This document shows, piece after piece, positions 11,611-64,000 of a DNA stretch of 64,000 nt. The position numbers were made by a program, and so were the translations under genes. The notes beneath the pieces were generated by a model. That model ran no database searches and was not told the DNA's origin. It was given only the letters and a program-made list of their open reading frames with translations. Each line of letters starts with the position of its first letter. Within the stretch, counting starts at the first letter, position 1. The stretch comes from Balanoglossus misakiensis (lineage: Eukaryota; Animalia; Hemichordata), in NCBI GenBank assembly GCA_040954595.2, contig CM082578.2, forward strand, positions 11,725,166 to 11,789,165. Reading direction: 5' to 3'.

Positions 11611-12051
11611 TGACAACCACGGCGTGACAAAAACCCGACACATCCAAGTGCTTGTGTGTACTTACCAACCTCTCCTGCGCACATCGTACTGGTCAATGTT
11701 ATTAGGACCTAAACTCCATATGTGTGCTATGGCATTTAAAGAGATTGACACGATATTCTAGTACAGATCACACCCAGGAGTATTAAAATTAAAGTCAAGA
11801 CAAAAAAAAACACGCACACATGGGTATTTCAAGACTGCGCTTTGCAAGCACAACTGACACCTTTATTGTGATTCAGCTTTCCTCTCTCTGTCCTCAGATT
11901 TTGCACAATCCACATGAAACTGACGTGCAAAACCTGAGGTTTGAATAGCGCCCTCAGTGGTCAAATAAACAAAACTGTCAGCCAAATATGAACTTCTAGC
12001 AAGGATTAATAAAATAGTACATGTATTCAATTTGGACACACCGTGTTGTCA
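11611..12051 (-). promoter_or_regulatory. Putative intronic RNA stem (arms 12037-12051 and 11611-11626) enclosing exon 7b
   Basis: In the transcript, UGACAACACGGUGUG pairs with CACGCCGUGGUUGUCA: 15 bp including one G-U wobble, plus a single-G bulge. Confidence 0.6.
11666..11726 (-). CDS. CACNA2D: CACNA2D alternative exon 7b (61 nt, phase 1->2): AHIWSLGPNNIDQYDVRRRGW
   Basis: Acceptor ctctttaaatgccatag, donor TTG|gtaagt. Closely matches alpha2delta-1 ASPW...IDLYDVRRRPW. Confidence 0.93.
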
Positions 12052-14745
12052 GTTGTTTTGGCCTGTGTGTGTCTGTGTTCTTGCCAAGAGCAGCCTGTAT
12101 ACCCGACACATACATGTAGTTAAAAATGATGATGCATCAGTAGTGTGAGGATGCGGTGGACTGAAATACACGATGAAAACACGGAGAAAAGCAAAGCAGA
12201 GTTGCTAAAAGCAAGGTGAAACAGATGCGAGTAAACAGACAGTGTGTAAGAAATTAATCGGGAAGAATTATCAGGCAACTTGTCGAGTAGTAAAAAAAAC
12301 AACACTCTTAGAGACTACAAAACGGTGACCATTTACCAGCTCCGTGTTCGGTGATCGAATGTATCCACTGAGATATCATCCTTCATATAAGCTGTGGAAA
12401 GGAATTGTCAGGGTGACCATTCAACGAGTTAAATATGGTACCATCCAGAGAGGCGTGGTTGGAACCATATACAGCAGGTAGCTTAGCTAGGAATGAAAGG
12501 TCATCCATTGCCACCAAAATTCTCTCGCCTGTAGTCTGCAATTTTTTTTTCTTGAATAGATATCTCAGAATTTGAATATCAAATTCACCGCAAATAGTTT
12601 ACTGTACGAGATCAGCTATTGCAGAGTTATAAATAATTTAGACTGTAAGTAGGAATGCGCAAAAACATTTCAAAATGTAAAGAAGCGTCATGACAATTAA
12701 ATGTTATGCAATAGACAAATATCAGAAATATTGTTATTGTTAATGTAAAATCCCGTCTGATTTTATAACAAAGTGATATTCGACTTCAGTGTGCAAGATT
12801 TAAAACACACATTCGGTGTTATACCCTTACCACCACATTTTGTGTGACCGACACCTTTTGTTAGTGACACGCATCACCATTATCAGAAATAGTGTGTTTT
12901 GGACTGTTTTTCGGTCAAAATAGATCAAACTTCAAGTTAGGCTCTTTTACAGAAGCTCACATTGAAGCTCTTTTAATAGCGAGTATGCCACGTAGAGTTA
13001 AAGGCAGCATAATGTCATTTTTTTTACAAGGCTAGATAGCATAGTGTTATGAGAATAAACTGAAAAAGTTTTTTTAGTAACGCGCTATCATTTGATGCAT
13101 GATAAACTATAATGTACAAACAGTTTTGTCTATCTCTGCAAGTTTTCCTTGTATGTGTGATAAGCATGATTTCAAAAACTGAAATAAATTTGGAGCAAAG
13201 TTGCCTAAAAAGGATTTGGAGATAAAAGGGTGAAAAAAAACTTACACCCTCAACAAGGATGGTCAATAATTATGTCTTCAAATAAGCCCAAGAACTGGAG
13301 TAATTATTCCACTTTTCATCAAACAGGACGCAAGTGAACACAGTGCGTGTCTCATGCATTCCTTGGTAACTCTGACTCTATTTTGGTGACCCCCTTTTCT
13401 CTTGCACATAAACCTGTTTCATTTTTGAAAAGTGACCAACCAATAGACCAGCCTTGCATGAGTGTAAGTGAATTGTGCACATAGAAATATTGTGTGCTGA
13501 TTATCAGAGAAAGAAACCCCAAATGGTGAAAAAACACAGTAAAGATACCACCACCAAAATTTAAACGCTGTTTAATAGGCGTGCAGGTTGAATATAATAT
13601 TACGCAATGAGCCGAGGGATGCTTGCATAGCTATGCAGATAAATCAGCGGGTGCTGCACTTCATGCAGTGATTTTTAGCCATTTTTTTGCATTTTCAGAC
13701 AAGTTGGTTTCTGCCCCGAAACAGGTGATGGTGAAATATCTGACAGACCATCATGTGACACACCTATCATTTCTCTCTTGTGCGAATTTGCATGATAGTG
13801 CTTGATTTCAATAGCATTGGCCAGATCATTTCTTATTTTCACATGTGGTTCTACACACATAATTTTTTTTTTAGAAAATAACATCCAACTCGAATTTTGA
13901 AGTTCAATTTTTGAAGTTCAATTCTTTTCAGCGGTATAATACCAAAAGTGAGGATATAAAGCTTTATGTTTTTTTCAGTTCTGAATAAACTGACCACAGC
14001 AAAGGAAAGTTCCGATACTCAGTTTTACAAACATGTAGTTTCTGGGGTTCCAATCTTGTCTGTGATGCAAAATATGGCATTGAGAAATCATGCAGGTAAC
14101 ATGCAGCACCGTCTTAAATATAATATAAACATGCATTTGGTCAAACTACAACTAATTTAACATCTAGACACTTCACTCACAGATACTATTGACAATGTAA
14201 GTAAAACATTCACTCTAACTTCTATTCTATTTTATTCTATTTTGTTTCTTTTCTATTCTATGCATTCAATTCCATTCTTGATGTTACTGCTTTTCTTCAA
14301 AATGCAAATTTGTTATTTGCGTCTGCCAGAAATCACGCTAAATTTTCTTTTATTCTTTTATCTATCTTCATGAATTTTCAAAGTCATGTCAGTTTTATAA
14401 TACTTTATTCAGCCATGCTTTAGCAAAAAACCTACCTGGATAAGTTCTCATAAAGCCTTCACTGCTGCCAAAGTACTGCCATATAAGCTCTTTATCGTTC
14501 TGATAATTGGAAACATAAACTTCATCTATGCCACTGGTCCATTTTATACCATTGAGGATTCTTGGGTCTGTTGGAAACAGCAGAATTAATTTACATATTT
14601 AAATTGTACGCTCTTTGAACGAATCTCAGTTCAAAAAGTGGAATTTTTTCAGCTACCCCAAAAGTGAAATGCTGAAAGACTGCATGTCAGATTATTGGCC
14701 AATTACTGATCCATGATGTATCAACTGATCACACTCAATTAATCT

Positions 14746-14803
<58 letters not shown>

Positions 14804-17800
14804 CTGTCAATCAAACACACACACACACAGAATCCTATTGAAAGAATGACTTTACCTCCTTTAAAAATGTCTGTTGGTATATGCACCACACTAGCGGACA
14901 TGTTGACAGGCTGCCCGAACTGAGAACTGTCGCTCACGTTCAAATCTAAATTTTTGGCATCGTGGTATTCAACATCTTCACTCTATTTTTGGAGGGAAAG
15001 AGAAATTAACAGTCAATTCTATAAAGCTGCTATGTCCAAGAAAACTTGACTTGAATGCAGTAAATAGTGAAATTAAGGACATATTTTTTTGCTATTAAAA
15101 AGCACAAAGGTGATGTAGATGTTGAGTGTACGAATACTTGATCATCGTATGTGGCAGATACTTTTAAATCAATTAAAGAAAAAAGGAAGTTACCAAAATG
15201 TCTGGGTCATATGTGTGGTTGGTGGCTGCTTCTTCCAGATGGTCCACCAATCTCTGAAAGCAAATCAGAAAAAAACGTATTAAAATGCGCCCTCTTGTGG
15301 ATAAAATTTTGTTCGAAAAAGACGTTCATCCTGCCCAGATGGCGCCACCTATTGATGACGAGCAGCCACCGATATATCTTTTGTTTTCACGTTCCTTTCC
15401 CTCTCACGACTTTGCCCGGAGGCCGACACGAGAAAGCATGAGACTCACAGTCATTGATCCGTCATGTAGCTGTGCTAATTCAAACTTTTGCAAAATGAAA
15501 TGAGACGAATTCACAAACGGAGTGAATAACCTCGGGGCAAAAAGAGTGTTGACGTACATCAATATTCACCTGGGAGTCAAAACTGATGGCTTGGATTTTT
15601 CCTGTCACGCCAAACAAACCGTATCAAGTTTTTCAAACCATTGTCATATTGATGGGAAAAATTACACACAAAAATCCCTGGGAGACACAACACACATCCA
15701 TGTTGTGCGAAAAATCAATAAGCTGTCTGATCATATACCGAACACTGTTCACAAAGTAAAGATTTCTGGCCAAAAAAGACAAATTTTGAGTATTTAGGTT
15801 TTATTGGTTTTTGAGAGGACACAGGAGATAAAGTATTGCTGAAATGCTGGAACAGAATTCACATATTATGGTATTTCATGTTCATAGTTTGTATAAAAGA
15901 AAGACAAAAATTCTCATATTGTAATGTATGATCAAAATCCTAAATCTCTGACATCGTAGATGATGACAAATTCAATGTATTCCAGTGGGAAAAGTAAACT
16001 CAGTATAACACTATATCTCACAAACACTATATATACCATACGCACTGAAAAAAATTTGTATATTCACAGTTATATGGGGTAAAAGTTGGTAGCTTGTGCA
16101 GACACCCACATACTTTCAACAAGTTGCAGAATTTTATCCGTCAATTAGACAAAACCGCATGAAACTGTGCTGTGCTCTTTCCAACTCGCTATCGGGAACC
16201 TTCCAACTAACCTCCACGAATTAGCCACATCGTTGACTTATTGCACTGAAACCCTGTATTTCCCAGGCGAGCATTACTTCCACAGAAAAGAACACAATCT
16301 TTGTGTGCTCAGCACTAATTGGCAGTGAATCCATCAAAGCATATATATTCAAGGCATATTTTCCAACAGAAAATTGATCTTAATGAGAGAGCAATGACCT
16401 TTACACCTCCCTGAATTTGGCTATACCCTTCCAAACACAGTCGACGTCATTCCCAACAAAAAAAATTATCACCAATATGCAAGATTATTACGCGCTGTAA
16501 TTGGTTTCCTCCTTTGTCGGGTAAAAAAAACCACACCATTTCCCAAATTGAGCTTCCCTGCAATACACCAAGACTGAAGAGGTGACCTACTTCAACAAAC
16601 TGCAGCACTGCCTGCAGCATTTGTCAATACCATATGCACGGCAGTTGAACTAATCCGCCCAGTAATTTCCACTCTGTGTTTATTCCTAGATTGTGCAAGT
16701 TTCACAGTAATAACTATAATGACTGCGCATGTGGTTGGGAGTTTGTAGCCGCGAGAGCTGAAATTTTAAAATAGCGCAGCCAGCCGTGAATCTTTTATCT
16801 GTTGCTCTCTTCCTAATTCACTCAATCCATACATGTATGTGTGTATATGTGTGTGTGTATCTCATCAGACTCCACAAAAACGAACTTCTCTGGTTATTTT
16901 GTCACCCCTTGCCAAATTGAGCATGCCACCAACACAATAGGAACTCATCAGAGCCATCTAGTGATCTGCGAAAAATGCATGTTTCTTTAAAAGCAGCTTT
17001 TAACAAACAAAAGCTGTGATCTATTAAAGTGGGTGGTATCTTGTTTCAGTTCATTCCGAACCAGTGTACGTTCTCGCATGAAGAGTACAGTAGGTAGTGT
17101 TTCAACTAGTTCATAAAAGGAGAACGCCTGTGTGTACAGTTCCAATTAAAATCGCCACCTTCTAAGCTCACAATTATTAATACAACATCTACATTTACCA
17201 AATTGTATCTATATGTAGGTACACCACGTGTAATCAGTATTGATCTGTCATGGTGTTTTCTTTAATCTATATAGTACCCAGTGCGAATGTACCTGTTATG
17301 TTTTGAGAAACCACACTGAAGGTCCATTTCTACGACACCTACCCTATCACGTCGAAAAAATATAAACATGCTTGTTTCCAAAAGACCTTGATTCAATAAA
17401 TCAATTCAGATGGTTTCCTCTTGAGGTGGCAAAATCAAATTAAATATTCCAACATCACTCACACACACAACTTAATTTTCAGCCACAAAGGACCATAACT
17501 CAATATATGCAAAAAGACATCATCAAATGAATGCATCTTTTTTCCCCTCACAAAAAGACTGTGATTCAAATGAATGACTGAATACACACAGTCACTGACA
17601 AATGTTGCAGTATTCAATTAAATTGTTGTGCCAATTAAATGCAGCATGCACATGAAACGGGGACCGATGAAACAAATCAAATGATTCACTTGCTTCAGAG
17701 GACCGTGTCAACAGTTCCATTCTTGGACAAAGATTCAGTGTAAATATGCTTTCATCGGCAATCAGTCTAATCAATTTTCACTTTTTTATTAGTTCAGATG

Positions 17801-35800: not shown

Positions 35801-38800
35801 GCGCCAAGGTGAATGTGGAGTTGATCAGCATGATGGCTGATCAACAAGGGCACAGATCGAGCGCACAAAGGCTGATGTGTCACAAAAAAAAACGAACAGA
35901 TGACAGGCAACATAATACACTTTTCCCGGTACTTTTTCTCCATTCAAACGTACAGCTCTCAGTTTAGTAATAAGAGATGTAGGTTAAATATGTATCTTCA
36001 CAAAACGGTGAACTTTCTGTAGGCGGCTTACAAAAGAACAAACTCTTTGAATAAGTTCAGAAAAATACTCCTAAGAAAGAGCATGATACGTTGAACACAA
36101 TCTACAGTATACGACCTACAAACTATATGAATTGAAAACTGCATTCTGAGAATGTGCCTTCAGATACTCTCTTTTAACCACATGCAACAATAAATCACAC
36201 CCTTTCTATTCACTTACCTTTAGTGCACTCATTTTCCAGCCAAGCAGCGTCTCCCAATTATTCGCAATTTCTGCAACGATAGTTTCTCCATCCACTGCTG
36301 CCAAAGGAATATTCGCATCTTGGTATTTCTACAACAAAGAGCGCCAGAAAAAAAAAGACCACAATTACACCACGGTTTAGAAAAAAAGTTCTGTGTACCC
36401 AACACAGACATTTCTCTAATTGGCTAAATTTGGATACTCCTTCCCAAAAAAAAAAGGCCAGGATCAGCTAGAACACAGCTCCATTTCTTGTCTGAAAGAT
36501 CTTCCTTTCATCTCACTCAGTATTCTTCTTTATCATTAACCCATGCATCATTGATGATCGCATGCCTTATTGAACTTTGGTATTTCACACCAATGCAGCA
36601 GTCACTTCTTTTAAATAAATAATTAAAGCGTGCATAAGCCGCATATCCGCTGGCATGAAAAGCAAGAGCATAGTTGCTTTGACACTCGACGGTATAGGTG
36701 AAAGCTGTCTTCTCTTTTGCCCTTTAATCAGGCTGTTTTCATCACCCCGACATTTGCGCATCAAATGAAATCATACACATTTTATACACCATGAAAGAAG
36801 TGCACAGTGTACAAATGTATGTGTAATTTTAGATTATGGCGGTTCATTGAAACCCACATGTCAACATCATAACATTTCATGTTTCCAAAATCTATTATCA
36901 TCACAATAACTTTTTAGCAAATGATCTTCATCTATTATCATCAGTACCTAATGCCCCAACATTACCGGTACATTACATGAAGAAGTTAACGGAAATCATC
37001 TTATTTTAAATTGTCTCTATTGTCACTTTCATCGGTTGAAATAACGTGCTTATAATGGACTCAGGTGCTTTAGTGAGCTCACAAGAAACCAATGGCAGTC
37101 AATGCTTCGTTTCAAAAGCTACTAGTTCATTCCATGACCAGAGGAGTTAATCGACGCCAACTATTGAAATTCTACCTTTATGGACTTCTGAATGATGTAA
37201 AAGCCCGTGGACACATTAACAACAGCACAGATAAACTGCGGCCATCAGAACACATTCTTCGCTGATGGAGGTATATAACCTGTGCTCACTTCTTGTCATT
37301 CAGCAATTACGATAACATCGAAGCAAGATCAGACTTGATGGCCTCCGCCGGCAAAGCTCATATTGCTTTGGCTAATAACATTTTCGGCTGAAATGCCATC
37401 TGAAATGAGGCAAATTGCACAGACACCAGCCTCTAATGTGGTTCATCACTCTTTTGTGCACCCTTACCCCCTTGGAAAAATGGATCATGTTATAATATTA
37501 CCCGGTGAACTACATGTATGCTTTAAATCATTCAGCGACAAACAGGGCTCCACGTGTGACGTGTGTTCTGAGTGTACATCCCTATTATTATGCCTTAAGG
37601 TTCATTTTATGGCAAATTTTTGAGAGCAGCGCACGACATGAAATCAAAGCAGATGAGAACTGCATAAAACTACAACGTATTTATGCAAATAAAGTGGCAT
37701 CCAGCCAAAGAAAGAATGGTTCAGAGCAGACAGTCAGTACACTGGGCTCACATATGAACAAATATCTGCCCAATACTCTGTGGCAGTCGCACAGCTTGTC
37801 AAACATGTAGTCGATGCACTACCCTAAAGCTGAGTAAACACATTTTCGTAAATTACAGGTAACAGATAAAAATCATTATTGATCTGAAAGATTGGAGTGA
37901 TAATCTCCATGAGATAACAGGCTGATTTCCCAGAAATGGTTGCAGCATTGGCCGACGCAACTTTATTTCAATAAATCTATCTCGACAGACACAGAAACGA
38001 GTGTAGACCATTGTGAATATATATACATGTATATATCTGTACTGTATCCATGGCTATTGCTGTAGTTGGGGTCTTACAAGCCATTCATATCTATTATTTA
38101 CTATCAATACATTATGTCAGTTTGTACCCAGACCCATTACCCTGATGGAAACCTCACATCTTGCCAAGCCAGACTCCATTAGCTTTATTTGCACCAGTTT
38201 AGCTGTCCATATCTTTGAATATTTCAGTATTAGTAAAATACCTTATACAATGTATGTCTGCATGTTATCAAGTAAAGTCCCAGTTGAAATATTGAAATTA
38301 TACTATCTAAATGTTCACACAGGACTTGGCTAATATTCATATTATCAACACAGGCACCACAACAGCCTAGATGATAATAACAATCTAACATTGTGTCTGG
38401 GACTTCTATACATAGAAACAGGGTGAACTGGGATTACTGTCCTCTTCAAGATCTCAAGACAAGTGTGTAAATACATGTATCATTATGTAAACTGGGAATC
38501 ACCCGAGGTACACTGTATTGTGTATGTTATTTTGACGTCAATCTATAATTTACTGCTGTATTAAGTCATAAAATGAAATGCAGGGGTACACATTCTTATG
38601 GAGAGCAAATATACCCAAACAAAATTACAAATTTATGTAAATAAAATTATGTGCGACAATTACAGCTTCATTAGTAAATCTATTATTTTTAGCATCACTG
38701 GAATTTTATTTAACATATGTAAATCAATAGAGTAATGAGCCTATGAGCACATTGTTTAGGCTACAATTATATCAAAATAAGTTCAACTTCAGGGTCACCT

Positions 38801-59800: not shown

Positions 59801-60828
59801 AGAAAACTTCGGCCCATCACTAAATGCAAAGTCATTTTATCATCTGCATGGAAAAATGGAAAACTAGGGCACAATTAGCACTGTGAATGGGGTGAATTCA
59901 GCATTCACAAACCATTTTGAATTTATTTCAGACATTTTTAAAACCTGGGGTAATCAATTCGTTTATCAAAAAAATTTGCATGGAGGTTCTTCCTTGCATT
60001 TTTAAGGAAACATTTCTCAAAGCTATTGGGCATCTCTGTGTGAAAAAAAAAAATTGTCAGGAATTTTCCGTAATGATGATGACGGGATGTAGAAAAAGTG
60101 GGTCAATTAGGAATAAAACAGAGCTGAATACATCTTCCTCACGGACGCCTTTTTCTGCATTGTCTATTCTCTAGTATTCAGCTGTCTGTCAACGCATACA
60201 TGTATATATACCATTCAATGTAAATGCCCCTGTAATGCACAGACCAGTCTGTGCGCCTTCCATGCAAATCATTTTTTTTCCTCGTTGCCATCACCGAGAA
60301 GCCACCGTCGTAGACACAATGGCCACGCGGCACAGTTAACGCATTCCCTCAATATTTGACAGCCTGTCGTATCATAGCTCCGTCCGTGCATCGTATGATG
60401 GATTAAAAATTTTCAACTGACAAGTTTTATTAGAAATAATCAGTGATCGCAGGCATTGGTGGACAGTTAAAAAGTCTTCTGATATGTCGACTCTATTTAA
60501 CTTGTAGCTGAGCTCTCCACAAACACTTTTTTATTATCAAGATACATGTATAACTTACCCACCCAGCCAGTCTGATCCAAGTACATTTCAGTGTCAAGTC
60601 TCCAGTTTCAAGGTACACATGAAACCGATACAACAAGACAGGACTAATGTGCTATCGTTAGCTGCAATGAAACTATTATTGTATTAACAAAGCAGAAACA
60701 CGGCTACTATTCGTAGCCGAGTTTCTGCACACCTAAACATTCTTACCTGCGTCAGATAGTCAATCCCTAATACACTGTCCACGGACACTTTCAGCAGATC
60801 TCCAATCCCTTCAGACCACCCCTTTATT
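11666..60828 (-). CDS. CACNA2D: Voltage-dependent calcium channel alpha2delta subunit (CACNA2D family), partial multi-exon gene (N-terminal helices and start of first dCache domain)
   Basis: Manually spliced GT-AG exons read IKGWSEGIGDLLKVSVDSVLGIDYLTQ/KYQDANIPLAAVDGETIVAEIANNWETLLGWKMSALK/RLVDHLEEAATNHTYDPDIL/SEDVEYHDAKNLDLNVSDSSQFGQPVNMSASVVHIPTDIFKG/DPRILNGIKWTSGIDEVYVSNYQNDKELIWQYFGSSEGFMRTYP/AHIWSLGPNNIDQYDVRRRGW with consistent intron phases. This matches recalled alpha2delta motifs (VHIPTDIY, WQxFGSxxG, YDVRRRPW). N-glycosylation sequons NHT, NVS and NMS are present. The vertebrate paralog cannot be assigned. Confidence 0.96.
12337..12391 (-). CDS. CACNA2D: CACNA2D alternative exon 7a (55 nt, phase 1->2): AYMKDDISVDTFDHRTRSW
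   Basis: Branch-like ctgac and acceptor ttcctttccacag, donor CTG|gtaaat. Open frame continues exon 6 and ends in a split Trp codon. FDxRxRxW motif is homologous to exon 7b. Confidence 0.82.
14436..14567 (-). CDS. CACNA2D: CACNA2D exon 6 (132 nt, phase 1->1): DPRILNGIKWTSGIDEVY...LIWQYFGSSEGFMRTYP
   Basis: Acceptor tgtttccaacag, donor CAG|gtaggt. Contains the LNxxxWTSxxDEV and WQYFGSxxGFxRxYP motifs. Confidence 0.96.
14746..14829. repeat. Compound microsatellite (ATCA)n followed by (CA)n in the short intron between exons 5 and 6
   Basis: About 14 ATCA units at 14746-14801, then a CA run to 14829. Confidence 0.95.
14856..14982 (-). CDS. CACNA2D: CACNA2D exon 5 (127 nt, phase 0->1): SEDVEYHDAK...VVHIPTDIFKG
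   Basis: Acceptor ctttccctccaaaaatag, donor GAG|gtaaag. Contains the diagnostic VHIPTDI motif. Confidence 0.95.
15194..15253 (-). CDS. CACNA2D: CACNA2D exon 4 (60 nt, phase 0->0): RLVDHLEEAATNHTYDPDIL
   Basis: Acceptor tctgatttgctttcag, donor TTG|gtaact. 20 codons, matching alpha2delta-1 [20 protein letters not shown]. Confidence 0.9.
31280..31470. mobile_element. MITE with CTGTAAAACGG-type terminal inverted repeats
   Basis: ctgtaaaacggtaaatttt / aaaatttcccgttttacaa (2 mismatches), with internal ttcgcgaa motifs. A related right end (cccgttttacagta) is at ~55035-55048. Confidence 0.65.
32937..33206. mobile_element. 270-bp MITE with 27-bp terminal inverted repeats
   Basis: gggatcgaataacacactgcactcagt (32937-32963) / actgaatgcagtgtgttattcgatccc (33180-33206), one mismatch. 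No obvious TSD. Confidence 0.8.
35493..35550. repeat. Polypyrimidine/(CT)n low-complexity tract
   Basis: tctctctcttccctctctctcccc...ctctctctctctctctct. It produces the spurious ERERE ORFs in the track. Confidence 0.9.
36218..36328 (-). CDS. CACNA2D: CACNA2D exon 3 (111 nt, phase 0->0): KYQDANIPLAAVDGETIVAEIANNWETLLGWKMSALK
   Basis: Acceptor ctctttgttgtag, donor AAG|gtaagt. Resembles the alpha2delta helix ...[21 protein letters not shown]. Confidence 0.9.
47293..47379 (-). mobile_element. ~85-bp piggyBac-like (TTAA-CCCT end) MITE; related copy at ~55114-55202 (+)
   Basis: Reverse complement begins ttaaccctttcacc...atggtaaagttg, matching 55114 ttaaccctttcaccacaatggtt...atggtaaggttgg. Partial similar ends occur near 22273 and 24676. 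Confidence 0.55.
47411..47724. mobile_element. Double-inverted-repeat non-autonomous element (two abutting stem-loops; Crypton-like architecture)
   Basis: IR1 is 47411-47435 / 47559-47583 (25 bp, 2 mismatches). IR2 is ~47582-47632 / ~47674-47724 (near-perfect, ~50 bp) around a ctcgctatcgctcgtg core. The superfamily call is tentative. Confidence 0.7.
51982..52347 (-). mobile_element. Truncated transposase N-terminus with paired (PAX)-like bipartite HTH domain (Tc1/mariner-IS630 type remnant)
   Basis: ORF GIPTPQAVREKIVEMYLEGRSYGQISRAIGISKSTVCTICQKFVNTG...FIEYYKKTKPSIYLKEIQRKLVEDGVCTPATLPSV follows the paired-domain pattern (GRPLP..IR.KIVEM...ISRQL.VS..CVSKIL.RY.ETG...IEEYKRENP.MF.WEIR.KL..D.VC....PSVS). 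It is intronless and no DDE domain follows. Confidence 0.72.
55445..55620 (+). repeat. Tandem duplication, ~90-bp unit x2
   Basis: atgacatcaacacc...gaatattcaggtcactaaactcaacag...gagaacaatagcc starts at 55445 and 55535. The first copy has a 7-bp insertion. Confidence 0.92.
60692..60728. repeat. 16-bp hairpin immediately downstream (in the transcript) of the exon 2 donor
   Basis: gcagaaacacggctac-tattc-gtagccgagtttctgc, one mismatch. Confidence 0.85.
60747..60828 (-). CDS. CACNA2D: CACNA2D exon equivalent to vertebrate exon 2 (82 nt, phase 2->0): IKGWSEGIGDLLKVSVDSVLGIDYLTQ
   Basis: Acceptor ttttttatccag, donor CAG|gtaaga. Aligns with alpha2delta-1 [27 protein letters not shown], same length. 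Confidence 0.9.
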
Positions 60829-62063: not shown

Positions 62064-64000
62064 TTGTTAGGGTTTCGAGACCCTCTGGTCTCGAAACCCT
62101 CTTGAAATCGTGTTGTTTTTTATTATTATTCTTCTTCCCACTCTTAAAAACAGCCGCTATTCGAAGACCGTTGCACCCAATGACTTGAAATTTGGCTCAT
62201 AGGTAAATCTCAAAGCAAGTAATTTTCTGATCATGTAACTATGGCAACAGGTCACATGACCTGGCAGCCATCTTGGATTGAAAGTTTAAAATTGATCTCA
62301 TTTGCATAAAAAATGACGAATCAAAATTCTTTGAACAAACTTTGTGGACCATATGGCCAGGGTCCTATATGCAAAATTTCAATGTTCAAGTCTTTGCCGA
62401 TTTTGAGGAGATGATTTTTAAAGCATTATTTTTCATATTTTTCAAGACCATTGGACCCAGCCTTAGGCCTATACTTTCCATAGTTAAGCTATGGCCACCT
62501 AGGATCTTAGATTTATGCCCAATATCTCAACATCCGCTGGGCTGATCAGCTTCAAATTTATTGTGCAGCTAGCCTACCTTCCAACAATCAGTTCCAACTG
62601 GAAAAAATAATATGAAAAATCGACCGATTTTTTTATATTAATTTCTTTATGAAATCTATACCTATACGTATTCCACTATAGTTAAGCTATGGCCAAGTCG
62701 TTTTGTAGAATTCTGGTTGGTGCAATAGTCCTATCGGCCAGTGTGCAGCATAGGACCACAAAAAGAAGCCAAATTAATTCAAGGGTCACCTGTGACACCT
62801 GCCTAACTCATTAATTATGTGCATACCTAATTCGAGGCAAACCAATAGGGCTACAGGTCTGATTTTTGTTACACATGGACCAGTATGGGGTCAAATTATC
62901 CCCCGAAATTTGGGGTGACCTTGAGTGACCTTTGACCTTCTTCCGCATATCTCGGCATCCAGAGCAGGTACAGCTTAGGTGTTTGGGTGGATGGTACCAA
63001 AATAAGAAGCCAAATTCAAGGGTCACCTGTGACACCTGCCTAACTCATTAATTATGTGCATACCTAATTCCAGGCAAACCAATAGGGCTACAGGTCTGAT
63101 TTTTGTTGGACATGAACCAGTATGGGGTCAAATTATCCCCCAAAATTTGGGGTGACCTTGGGTGACCTTTGACCTACTTCCTCATATCTCGGCATTTACA
63201 GCAGGTACAGCTTAGGTGTTTGGGTGGATGGTATGAAAATAAGAAGCCAAAATTTAGGGTCACCTGTGATTCCTGCCTAACTCATTAATTATGTGCATAC
63301 CTAATTCTAGGCGAACCAAGGGGGCTACAGGTCTGGTGTTTGTTGGATATGTACCACTATGGGGTCAAATGTTTTTGCCCACATTTTGGGTGACCTTGGG
63401 TGACCTTTGACCTACTTCCTCATATCGCGGCATCCAGAGCAGGTACAGCTTAGGTGTTTGGGTGGATGGTACCAAAATAAGAAGCCAAAATTTAGGGTCA
63501 CCTGTGGCACCTGCCTAACTCATTAATTATGTGCATACCTAATTCTAGGCGAACCAAGGGGGCTACAGGTCTGGTGTTTGTTGGATATGTACCACTATGG
63601 GGTCAAATGTTTTTGCCCACATTTTGGGTGACCTTGGGTGACCTTTGACCTACTTCCACATATCTCAGCATCTAGAGCAGGTACAGCTTAGGTGTTTGGG
63701 TGGATGGAACCAAAATAAGAAGCCAAAATTTAGGGTCACCTGTGACACCTGCCTTACTCATTAATTATGTGCATACCTAATTCCAGGCGAACTAACAGGA
63801 CTACAGGTCTGGTGTTTGTTGGACATGGACCAGTATGGGGTCAAATTTTCCCCCCAAATTTCGGGTGACCTTGGGTGACCTTTGACCTACTTCCGCATAT
63901 CTCGGCATCCACAGCAGGTACAGCTTAGGTGTTTGGGAGGATGGTACCAAAATAAGTAGCCAAAATTTAGGACCACCTGTGACACCTGCCTAACTATGTG
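62064..64000 (+). mobile_element. Helentron-associated (HINE/DINE-like) non-autonomous element carrying an internal tandem array; runs off the window
   Basis: The 5' end has a perfect 14-bp hairpin agggtttcgagacc-ctct-ggtctcgaaaccct (62069-62100), then a (TTA)n(TTC)n microsatellite, unique sequence and tandem repeats. This is the layout described for HINE/DINE-1-type elements. Confidence 0.65.
62763..64000 (+). repeat. Tandem array of ~238-bp monomers (5 complete + 1 partial)
   Basis: The aagaagccaaa..agggtcacctgtg anchor occurs at 62763, 63004, 63241, 63479, 63717 and 63954 (periods 241, 237, 238, 238, 237). Confidence 0.97.

Follow-up and report, generated by a model that had tools for sequence, protein, structure and literature searches.

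We analysed a 64,000-nucleotide (nt) stretch of DNA from the acorn worm Balanoglossus misakiensis (GCA_040954595.2, contig CM082578.2), hereafter the window, whose own coordinates are used throughout. It carries, on the minus strand, part of a gene for alpha2delta (CACNA2D), an auxiliary subunit of calcium channels, in which exon 7, encoding a part of the amino-acid pocket of the first dCache domain, is present in two versions, 7a and 7b. Exons 2 to 6 were placed by tblastn; exon 1 could not be placed with confidence, and no exon 8 was found in the window. Residue numbers are those of rabbit alpha2delta-1 unless human is stated (human W223, Y236, R241 and W243 being W225, Y238, R243 and W245). 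The features are the following.

11666..11726, minus strand: exon 7b, 61 nt, putative ancestral-type version, supplying W225, Y238, R243 and W245 of the first dCache pocket
12337..12391, minus strand: exon 7a, 55 nt, alternative version, with no Trp at the W225 position, Phe at 238, and R243 and W245 kept
11727..12336, minus strand: intron between 7a and 7b, 610 nt, ordinary GT-AG
14436..14567, minus strand: exon 6, constitutive, 132 nt, phase 1 to 1, with W207, Tyr at V209, Met at A217 and Thr at Y219
14856..14982, minus strand: exon 5, constitutive, 127 nt
15194..15253, minus strand: exon 4, constitutive, 60 nt, boundary taken from the sequence
36218..36328, minus strand: exon 3, constitutive, 111 nt
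60747..60828, minus strand: exon 2, constitutive, 82 nt

Exons 7a and 7b are both bordered by AG and GT, and each has a length of 1 mod 3. Exon 6 leaves phase 1, and either 7a alone or 7b alone carries the frame on, whereas 7a joined to 7b runs into a stop codon within 7b; the effect of skipping both is judged from phase arithmetic, exon 8 lying beyond the window edge. 7a and 7b are tandem homologous exons of equal phase, which keep the frame singly and break it jointly, as expected of a mutually exclusive cluster. The original prediction, a note made earlier on this DNA, described this exon pair correctly: its positions, its 610-nt spacing, its phases, splice sites and peptides all agree with the sequence, as does the claim that either exon alone, and not both together, stays in frame. 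Among the 246 candidates downstream of exon 6 that lie between AG and GT, are open, measure 40-79 nt and have a length of 1 mod 3, 18 end with a split Trp codon and only three with RxW, namely 7a, 7b and a nested shorter 7b, so that no third RxW version of exon 7 is present in the 14.4 kb of window downstream of exon 6. Separately, an in-frame AG 18 nt into 7b (11708-11666, minus strand) could yield a 43-nt, Trp-less form; its acceptor context is poor and it is seen in no ortholog.

Each exon has its own counterpart among annotated hemichordate proteins. The 7a product is alike in 13/19 residues to the segment of P. flava XP_070557409.1, with a well-conserved end (10/11 for the last 11 residues) and a variable beginning (3/8 for the first eight), and P. 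flava, in its sole RefSeq model, has the 7a-type segment only. The Glandiceps model (XP_077987159.1) and two Saccoglossus models have the 7b-type only, sharing 20/21 and 16/21 residues with 7b. That 7a or 7b could be an assembly artefact or a dead copy is scarcely credible, as each matches a different annotated hemichordate ortholog, the splice sites are intact and echinoderms mirror the pair.

By homology and tree placement, the gene is an acorn-worm alpha2delta of the alpha2delta-1/2 lineage. Its exon 6 is 93% identical to P. flava XP_070557409.1 (P0001), 82% to Glandiceps talaboti XP_077987159.1 (P0002) and 80% to a Saccoglossus protein, and it matches alpha2delta-1 in the PDB. The orthologs carry PF08399, PF00092 and PF08473 and have the double dCache with inserted VWA domain of the family, to which exons 2-7 in the window belong; the AlphaFold model of the 7a-type P0001 superimposes on alpha2delta-1 structures with a template modelling (TM) score of 0.78. 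In a quick IQ-TREE search on 32 chosen proteins, rooted at midpoint and with the window gene placed through P0001 and P0002, the proteins of hemichordates and echinoderms group together (support 99) within the alpha2delta-1/2 lineage. Vertebrate alpha2delta-4 falls in the opposite lineage together with crab, krill and oyster alpha2delta-3-like proteins, the split having a Shimodaira-Hasegawa-like approximate likelihood ratio (SH-aLRT) support of 100, and a FastTree tree of 37 proteins agrees with it. As protostome members are found on both sides, the 1/2 versus 3/4 split is not a vertebrate division, contrary to the initial idea that the two pocket types had been divided among vertebrate paralogs. 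Four other proteins (P0408, P0421, P0422 and P0423) sit next to vertebrate alpha2delta-3/4 in the tree, in a lineage of their own; they are possible alpha2delta-3/4 members from invertebrate deuterostomes.

The exchange of the exon-7 segment is also found in echinoderms, where isoforms differing solely in this segment are annotated for the orthologs of seven assemblies: Patiria miniata (X1/X2), Acanthaster planci (X1/X2), S. purpuratus (X1/X2/X3, three versions), Asterias rubens, a second Asterias assembly, Apostichopus japonicus (X1/X3) and Lytechinus variegatus (X1-X5, five versions). The members of a pair differ in just 15-22 residues. The alternative segments of the sea stars Patiria and Acanthaster are identical, and the four alternatives of L. 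variegatus are unlike one another. Among seven holothurian proteins listed, one Logan-derived protein has the canonical segment and three have an alternative one; their unbroken frames of 1083-1103 amino acids on contigs of 4.6-6.0 kb indicate that these are probably spliced transcripts. Two proteins that are 78% identical and sister to the other echinoderms (P0397 and P0390) have one segment type each; separately, their position in the tree is that expected of crinoids. An either-or exon at the YxxxxRxW motif is therefore more widespread than had been claimed from the window alone, since two to five versions of the pocket exon occur in one alpha2delta gene in acorn worms and echinoderms.

Some observations argue against such a general swap. 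No hemichordate has both isoforms annotated, among the clusters listed; no alternative is found in Diadema antillarum (0/8 models), nor in D. setosum, Amphiura filiformis and L. pictus (one model each); canonical forms predominate in the echinoderm lists; and RefSeq X isoforms are predictions. The Holothuria leucospilota model is without the region. RefSeq X variants generally rest on transcript alignments, and both the isoform pairs of the seven echinoderm assemblies and the Logan contig proteins have one version at a time. Furthermore, no segment with two versions in frame is present among the 90 distinct segments described below. All these results make it likely that the exon versions are used one at a time, and a real mutually exclusive use of 7a and 7b appears very probable to us.

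One model shows what happens when two versions are retained. L. variegatus X11 (P0299, XP_041460753.1) starts with seven residues that correspond to the shifted-frame end of either of two alternatives (7/7, compared with 0/200000 random 7-mers for each of the two alternative exons) and continues with the canonical exon. This fit means that two versions do get included together, with loss of the frame, and it puts one or more of the alternative exons upstream of the canonical exon, in the same order as in B. misakiensis. We therefore take X11 for a frameshifted transcript with double inclusion rather than for a real short protein, and this single predicted model indicates that exclusion is not absolute. 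The L. pictus protein P0296 was also considered as a double-inclusion form and was ruled out, only 1/13 residues being compatible. As a separate observation, the Patiria X9 and Apostichopus X8 models are cut at the exon-7 region.

Steric hindrance between splice sites operates up to about 50 nt. In the 7a-7b intron, branch-like motifs lie 60-72 nt upstream of 7b, and the first 200 nt are pyrimidine-rich; the 7a acceptor has a branch-like motif 20 nt upstream, within an 88-nt AG-free zone. The motifs upstream of 7b being far from the 7a donor, steric exclusion is not indicated, and neither a close branch point nor a U12 donor is present at 7a/7b. RNA pairing as a mechanism of exclusion receives no support either, with local folds (z 0.33 and -0.52) and the whole intron (z 0.72) no better than shuffles; the inverted repeats are mostly chance-like, and no docking/selector pairing was found. 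Exclusion is thus likely to result from regulated choice, combined with a presumed decay of frameshifted double-inclusion transcripts, and not from steric hindrance. A different exon of 30 nt of sea-urchin Cacna2d2 is listed as Esrp-dependent in supplement 3 of Burguera 2017 (PMC5703972), which places this gene under tissue-specific splicing control; in the six supplementary files of that source, only the 30-nt exon, and not the exon 7 pair, is listed.

Several other elements were seen around the pair. One of them is the following.

11892..11939, minus strand: stem of 15 bp with an 18-nt loop, in the 7a-7b intron, 165 nt upstream of the 7b acceptor

This stem is fully paired as RNA, with one G-U, and may be due to chance or be a repeat remnant. 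On either side of 7a there is a copy of one 10-mer (12320-12332 and 12410-12422), beside the donor and the branch-like motif; these could be splicing-factor sites, and the local fold is no better than shuffles. Motifs resembling the CTCF consensus are found at about 15285-15350, just upstream of exon 4, and at about 11950 in the 7a-7b intron. Elsewhere in the window, a tandem array occupies 62782-63995 (237-nt unit, 5.1 copies, 92% matches).

In published structures, exon 7 corresponds to the beta2-alpha3 loop with W225 and to the Y238-R243-W245 motif holding the ligand carboxylate; 13 residues line the pocket in the gabapentin-bound structure, and W225, Y238, R243 and W245 are those encoded in exon 7. 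W225 adds to the coordination of the carboxylate, and the Y238F change costs a hydrogen bond (Chen 2022). Human W223, Y236, R241 and W243 are among 12 residues found important by an alanine scan (quoted second-hand in PMC11308618), W223 and Y236 are reported important for mirogabalin (PMC11308618, also second-hand), W223 is named as a hydrophobic contact (PMC12634952), R241A and D491A abolish the effect of gabapentin (PMC8915833), and R241A lowers the CaV2.2 current through trafficking in mammals (PMC8915833).

The exon-7 segment was obtained from 348/385 stored proteins, the 37 others being fragments or cut models, and 90 distinct segments resulted. The Trp at exon position 4 is present in 78 of them and absent from 12, each of these being an alternative form from a hemichordate or an echinoderm. 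All 12 retain R243 and W245, and position 238 is Tyr or Phe in eight and Leu, Glu or Pro in four. With respect to the N-terminal YxxxxRxW motif of dCache_1AA, 7b has Y, R and W, and 7a has F, R and W, departing at the first position. The other half of the site is encoded by exons outside the window, and Y452, D454, T463 and D493 are kept in hemichordate orthologs (Y452 and D493 in 3/3). AlphaFold assigns a 7a-type (P0001) and a 7b-type protein (P0002) identical secondary structure over exon 7, with a predicted local distance difference test score (pLDDT) of 72 in the loop of both, a comparison that bears on the shared fold only and not on pocket geometry. As a side observation, gastropod alpha2delta-1/2 orthologs (P0013, P0019, P0033 and others) have Gln for Arg243 in their sole exon version (15 distinct Gln segments), a natural counterpart of the binding-dead R241A; bivalves retain Arg.

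A few observations weigh against a change of the pocket through loss of this Trp. In 141 further representatives, Trp is absent from 7/112 segments, two of them being ambulacrarian-clade alternatives and five belonging to divergent long-branch proteins elsewhere, so that Trp loss occurs outside the ambulacrarian clade too. P0390, an alternative form, is without Trp and has Gln for R243. Finally, HMMER pairs the Tyr at position 2 of 7a with W223 of human alpha2delta-1 via a two-residue gap, and it is possible that the aromatic at this position partly stands in for the missing Trp.

The swap could act on a protein-contact surface instead, the beta2-alpha3 loop altering binding to the pore subunit or to an extracellular partner and the pocket changes being secondary. 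The N-terminal half of the loop is indeed the most variable one, as seen from the 3/8 match between 7a and P. flava and from the four dissimilar L. variegatus alternatives; Cache1 contacts extracellular loops of alpha1 according to a review (PMC10761187); and R243 and W245 are retained by 12/12 alternatives. Yet canonical exons are also free to differ in the length and sequence of the loop, always with their Trp (78/78), the sole feature common to all alternatives is the loss of a ligand-contact residue, and the literature search found no source putting this loop at the alpha1 interface. We consider a contact surface as the target to be unlikely, and find it reasonably probable that the swap mainly serves to alter ligand binding.

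It is a good deal more doubtful that the alternative exons are weakly used, drifting duplicates under relaxed constraint, or that they serve mainly to make unproductive transcripts lowering alpha2delta output. Their minor share of annotated isoforms, the low similarity between lineages, the double-inclusion model of L. variegatus and several N-terminally cut models would agree with such a fate. However, an open frame, the right phase and RxW are found in all 12 alternatives of the main segment set, the last 11 residues of 7a are nearly those of P. flava, the sea-star alternatives did not diverge between Patiria and Acanthaster, the only model of P. flava uses 7a, and 3/4 full-length holothurian contig proteins use an alternative.

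According to the original prediction, 7a would reproduce the gabapentin-insensitive type of pocket known from alpha2delta-3/4 and 7b the sensitive type of alpha2delta-1/2, and splice choice would toggle gabapentinoid binding. The Phe at 238 of 7a, which is one of the five selectivity changes of Chen 2022 (V209Y, Y219I/Q, Y238F, A455S and L456Q), and the full Y-RRR-W motif of 7b speak in its favour. The reported features of the 7a motif, Phe at 238 and no upstream Trp, do hold, but not the resemblance to alpha2delta-3/4, since alpha2delta-4 retains the Trp and 7b scores 41 against the alpha2delta-4 segment where 7a scores only 27. A pocket of the alpha2delta-3/4 type has W225, Phe 217 and Ser 455; the 7a isoform has no Trp, Met 217 and, as read from orthologs, Ala 455. 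Phe at 238 is also encoded by constitutive exons in the alpha2delta-1/2 orthologs of amphioxus and mussel, and the alpha2delta-3 proteins of crab and oyster have Tyr there. As for RxR versus RRR as a gabapentin switch, the first two Arg, and hence the middle one, face away from the pocket according to Page 2023 (PMC9901441), which does not hold RNR to be the cause of gabapentin insensitivity and blames Phe at the A217 position.

Moreover, only Y238F among the Chen 2022 sites falls in exon 7, the four others being outside it. A gabapentin-sensitive pocket has Val 209, a small residue at 217 and Tyr 219, whereas hemichordate orthologs have Tyr, Met and Thr, all encoded in exon 6 and thus common to both isoforms. 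As this exon is constitutive, gabapentin binding is unlikely in either, and neither the 7a nor the 7b isoform is likely to bind the drug. The original caveat that exon 6 may prevent 7b from conferring gabapentin binding is borne out, but Tyr 209 is the general invertebrate state and not, as was thought, a mark of alpha2delta-3. Vertebrate alpha2delta-3/4 resemble the 7a isoform in having Phe at 238, a non-Arg residue at 242 and Tyr at 209, and differ from it in W225 being kept, in Phe at A217 and in polar changes at 455/456; they form a separate, older gene lineage, beside which the four deuterostome candidates mentioned above branch on their own. An alpha2delta-3/4 mimic produced by splicing therefore seems very improbable to us.

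Outside Ambulacraria, no Trp-less alternative was found in 12 clusters, among the members listed. Fully listed were Haliotis (6/6), Biomphalaria (11/11), Pomacea (9/9), crab alpha2delta-1-like (14/14), lampreys (12/12 and 15/15) and Ixodes (6/6); listed in part were Mytilus (15/36), Branchiostoma (15/20), crab alpha2delta-3-like (15/18), oyster alpha2delta-3 (15/80) and sturgeon/paddlefish (15/48). Over this sampling of molluscs, crabs, ticks, amphioxus and vertebrates, the data suggest that the swap is an ambulacrarian feature. Exon 7b scores 41-67 against non-hemichordate canonical segments, with 35 against oyster alpha2delta-3, and we infer that it is the ancestral-type exon. The simplest reading of the distribution is that one duplication took place in the ambulacrarian ancestor, because the alternatives have in common the loss of Trp, a like length (19 residues in hemichordates, sea stars and 3/4 Lytechinus alternatives) and the same order. 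Similarity provides a counterargument: the scores of 7a are 5-29 with echinoderm alternatives and 20-36 with canonical segments, and the alternatives are very dissimilar. As 7a is no nearer to the former than to the latter, repeated duplication is possible and a single origin is not established by similarity; alternative exons may also have drifted fast.

All these results lead us to propose that 7a and 7b would be alternative builds of the carboxylate-binding half of the alpha2delta amino-acid pocket. One exon would be spliced per transcript, double inclusion leading to frameshift and decay. Exon 7b would give the full pocket; 7a would drop W225 and the hydroxyl of Y238 and keep the R243/W245 clamp, giving a pocket of lower affinity or of different selectivity in a fold predicted to stay intact. 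As pocket mutants alter alpha2delta-1 trafficking and current in mammals, exon choice would tune ligand-dependent surface delivery. On balance, we favour the view that the subunit made with 7a is folded and has a pocket of weaker amino-acid binding or of another selectivity, thereby tuning the ligand dependence of channel delivery. A bolder and much more tentative possibility is that Ambulacraria have a panel of two to five spliced amino-acid sensors with different ligands, whose choice by cell type would control calcium-channel delivery, and which would have been lost or never gained in chordates. This panel would be the splice-made counterpart of the paralogs of bacterial dCache chemoreceptors.

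Leucine occupies the alpha2delta amino-acid site, and gabapentinoids act through the same site; Trp or Phe added alone has no effect on alpha2delta trafficking. Splice variants that rewrite the ligand-contact exon across a deuterostome branch, five of them in sea urchins, suggest that regulation and selection both act on the state of the pocket. The isoform pairs, which sit unnamed in RefSeq, are natural probes of the purpose of the pocket, and this question is testable in Patiria, Lytechinus and S. purpuratus, model animals with transcriptomes and knockdown tools. The original prediction knew of no description of such a swap, and our literature search, which covered titles and abstracts and had subscription journals and most supplements outside its scope, found none either; the accessible part of Moran and Zakon 2014 does not cover ambulacrarian alpha2delta. 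The instance at the alpha2delta amino-acid pocket, expanded to five versions, therefore appears to be undescribed, although supplements of splicing surveys may list the exons without comment.

Either-or exons at a binding site are already known as a kind. FGFR IIIb/IIIc are mutually exclusive exons for ligand specificity and arthropod Dscam has exon arrays; as in alpha2delta, either-or exons lie at an extracellular binding surface, and arrays arise by tandem duplication. The alpha2delta pair differs from both in its small-molecule site, its small array, its frameshift backstop and the fact that no docking/selector pairing was found. Compared with the dCache_1AA pocket of vertebrate alpha2delta-1/2 (CACNA2D1/2; PMC8915833 and bioRxiv 10.1101/2022.12.05.519047), the acorn-worm gene has the same lineage, fold and 7b motif residues; it differs by its Tyr at V209 in exon 6, with gabapentin binding not expected, and by its alternative segment, which is absent among the lamprey and sturgeon/paddlefish isoforms listed. 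The vertebrate splice sites discussed in the accessible text of Page 2023 (PMC9901441) are regions A, B and C. The closest published parallel is that of NALCN exons 15a/15b (Senatore 2013, PMC3557258), where exon duplication likewise allows a functionally important residue of an ion-channel protein to be exchanged, and where the exons are kept in echinoderms and hemichordates and lost in chordates. In NALCN, however, the swap concerns a residue of the selectivity filter and two versions, whereas in alpha2delta it affects the site for ligands on an auxiliary subunit, comes in as many as five versions and is so far seen only in ambulacrarians.

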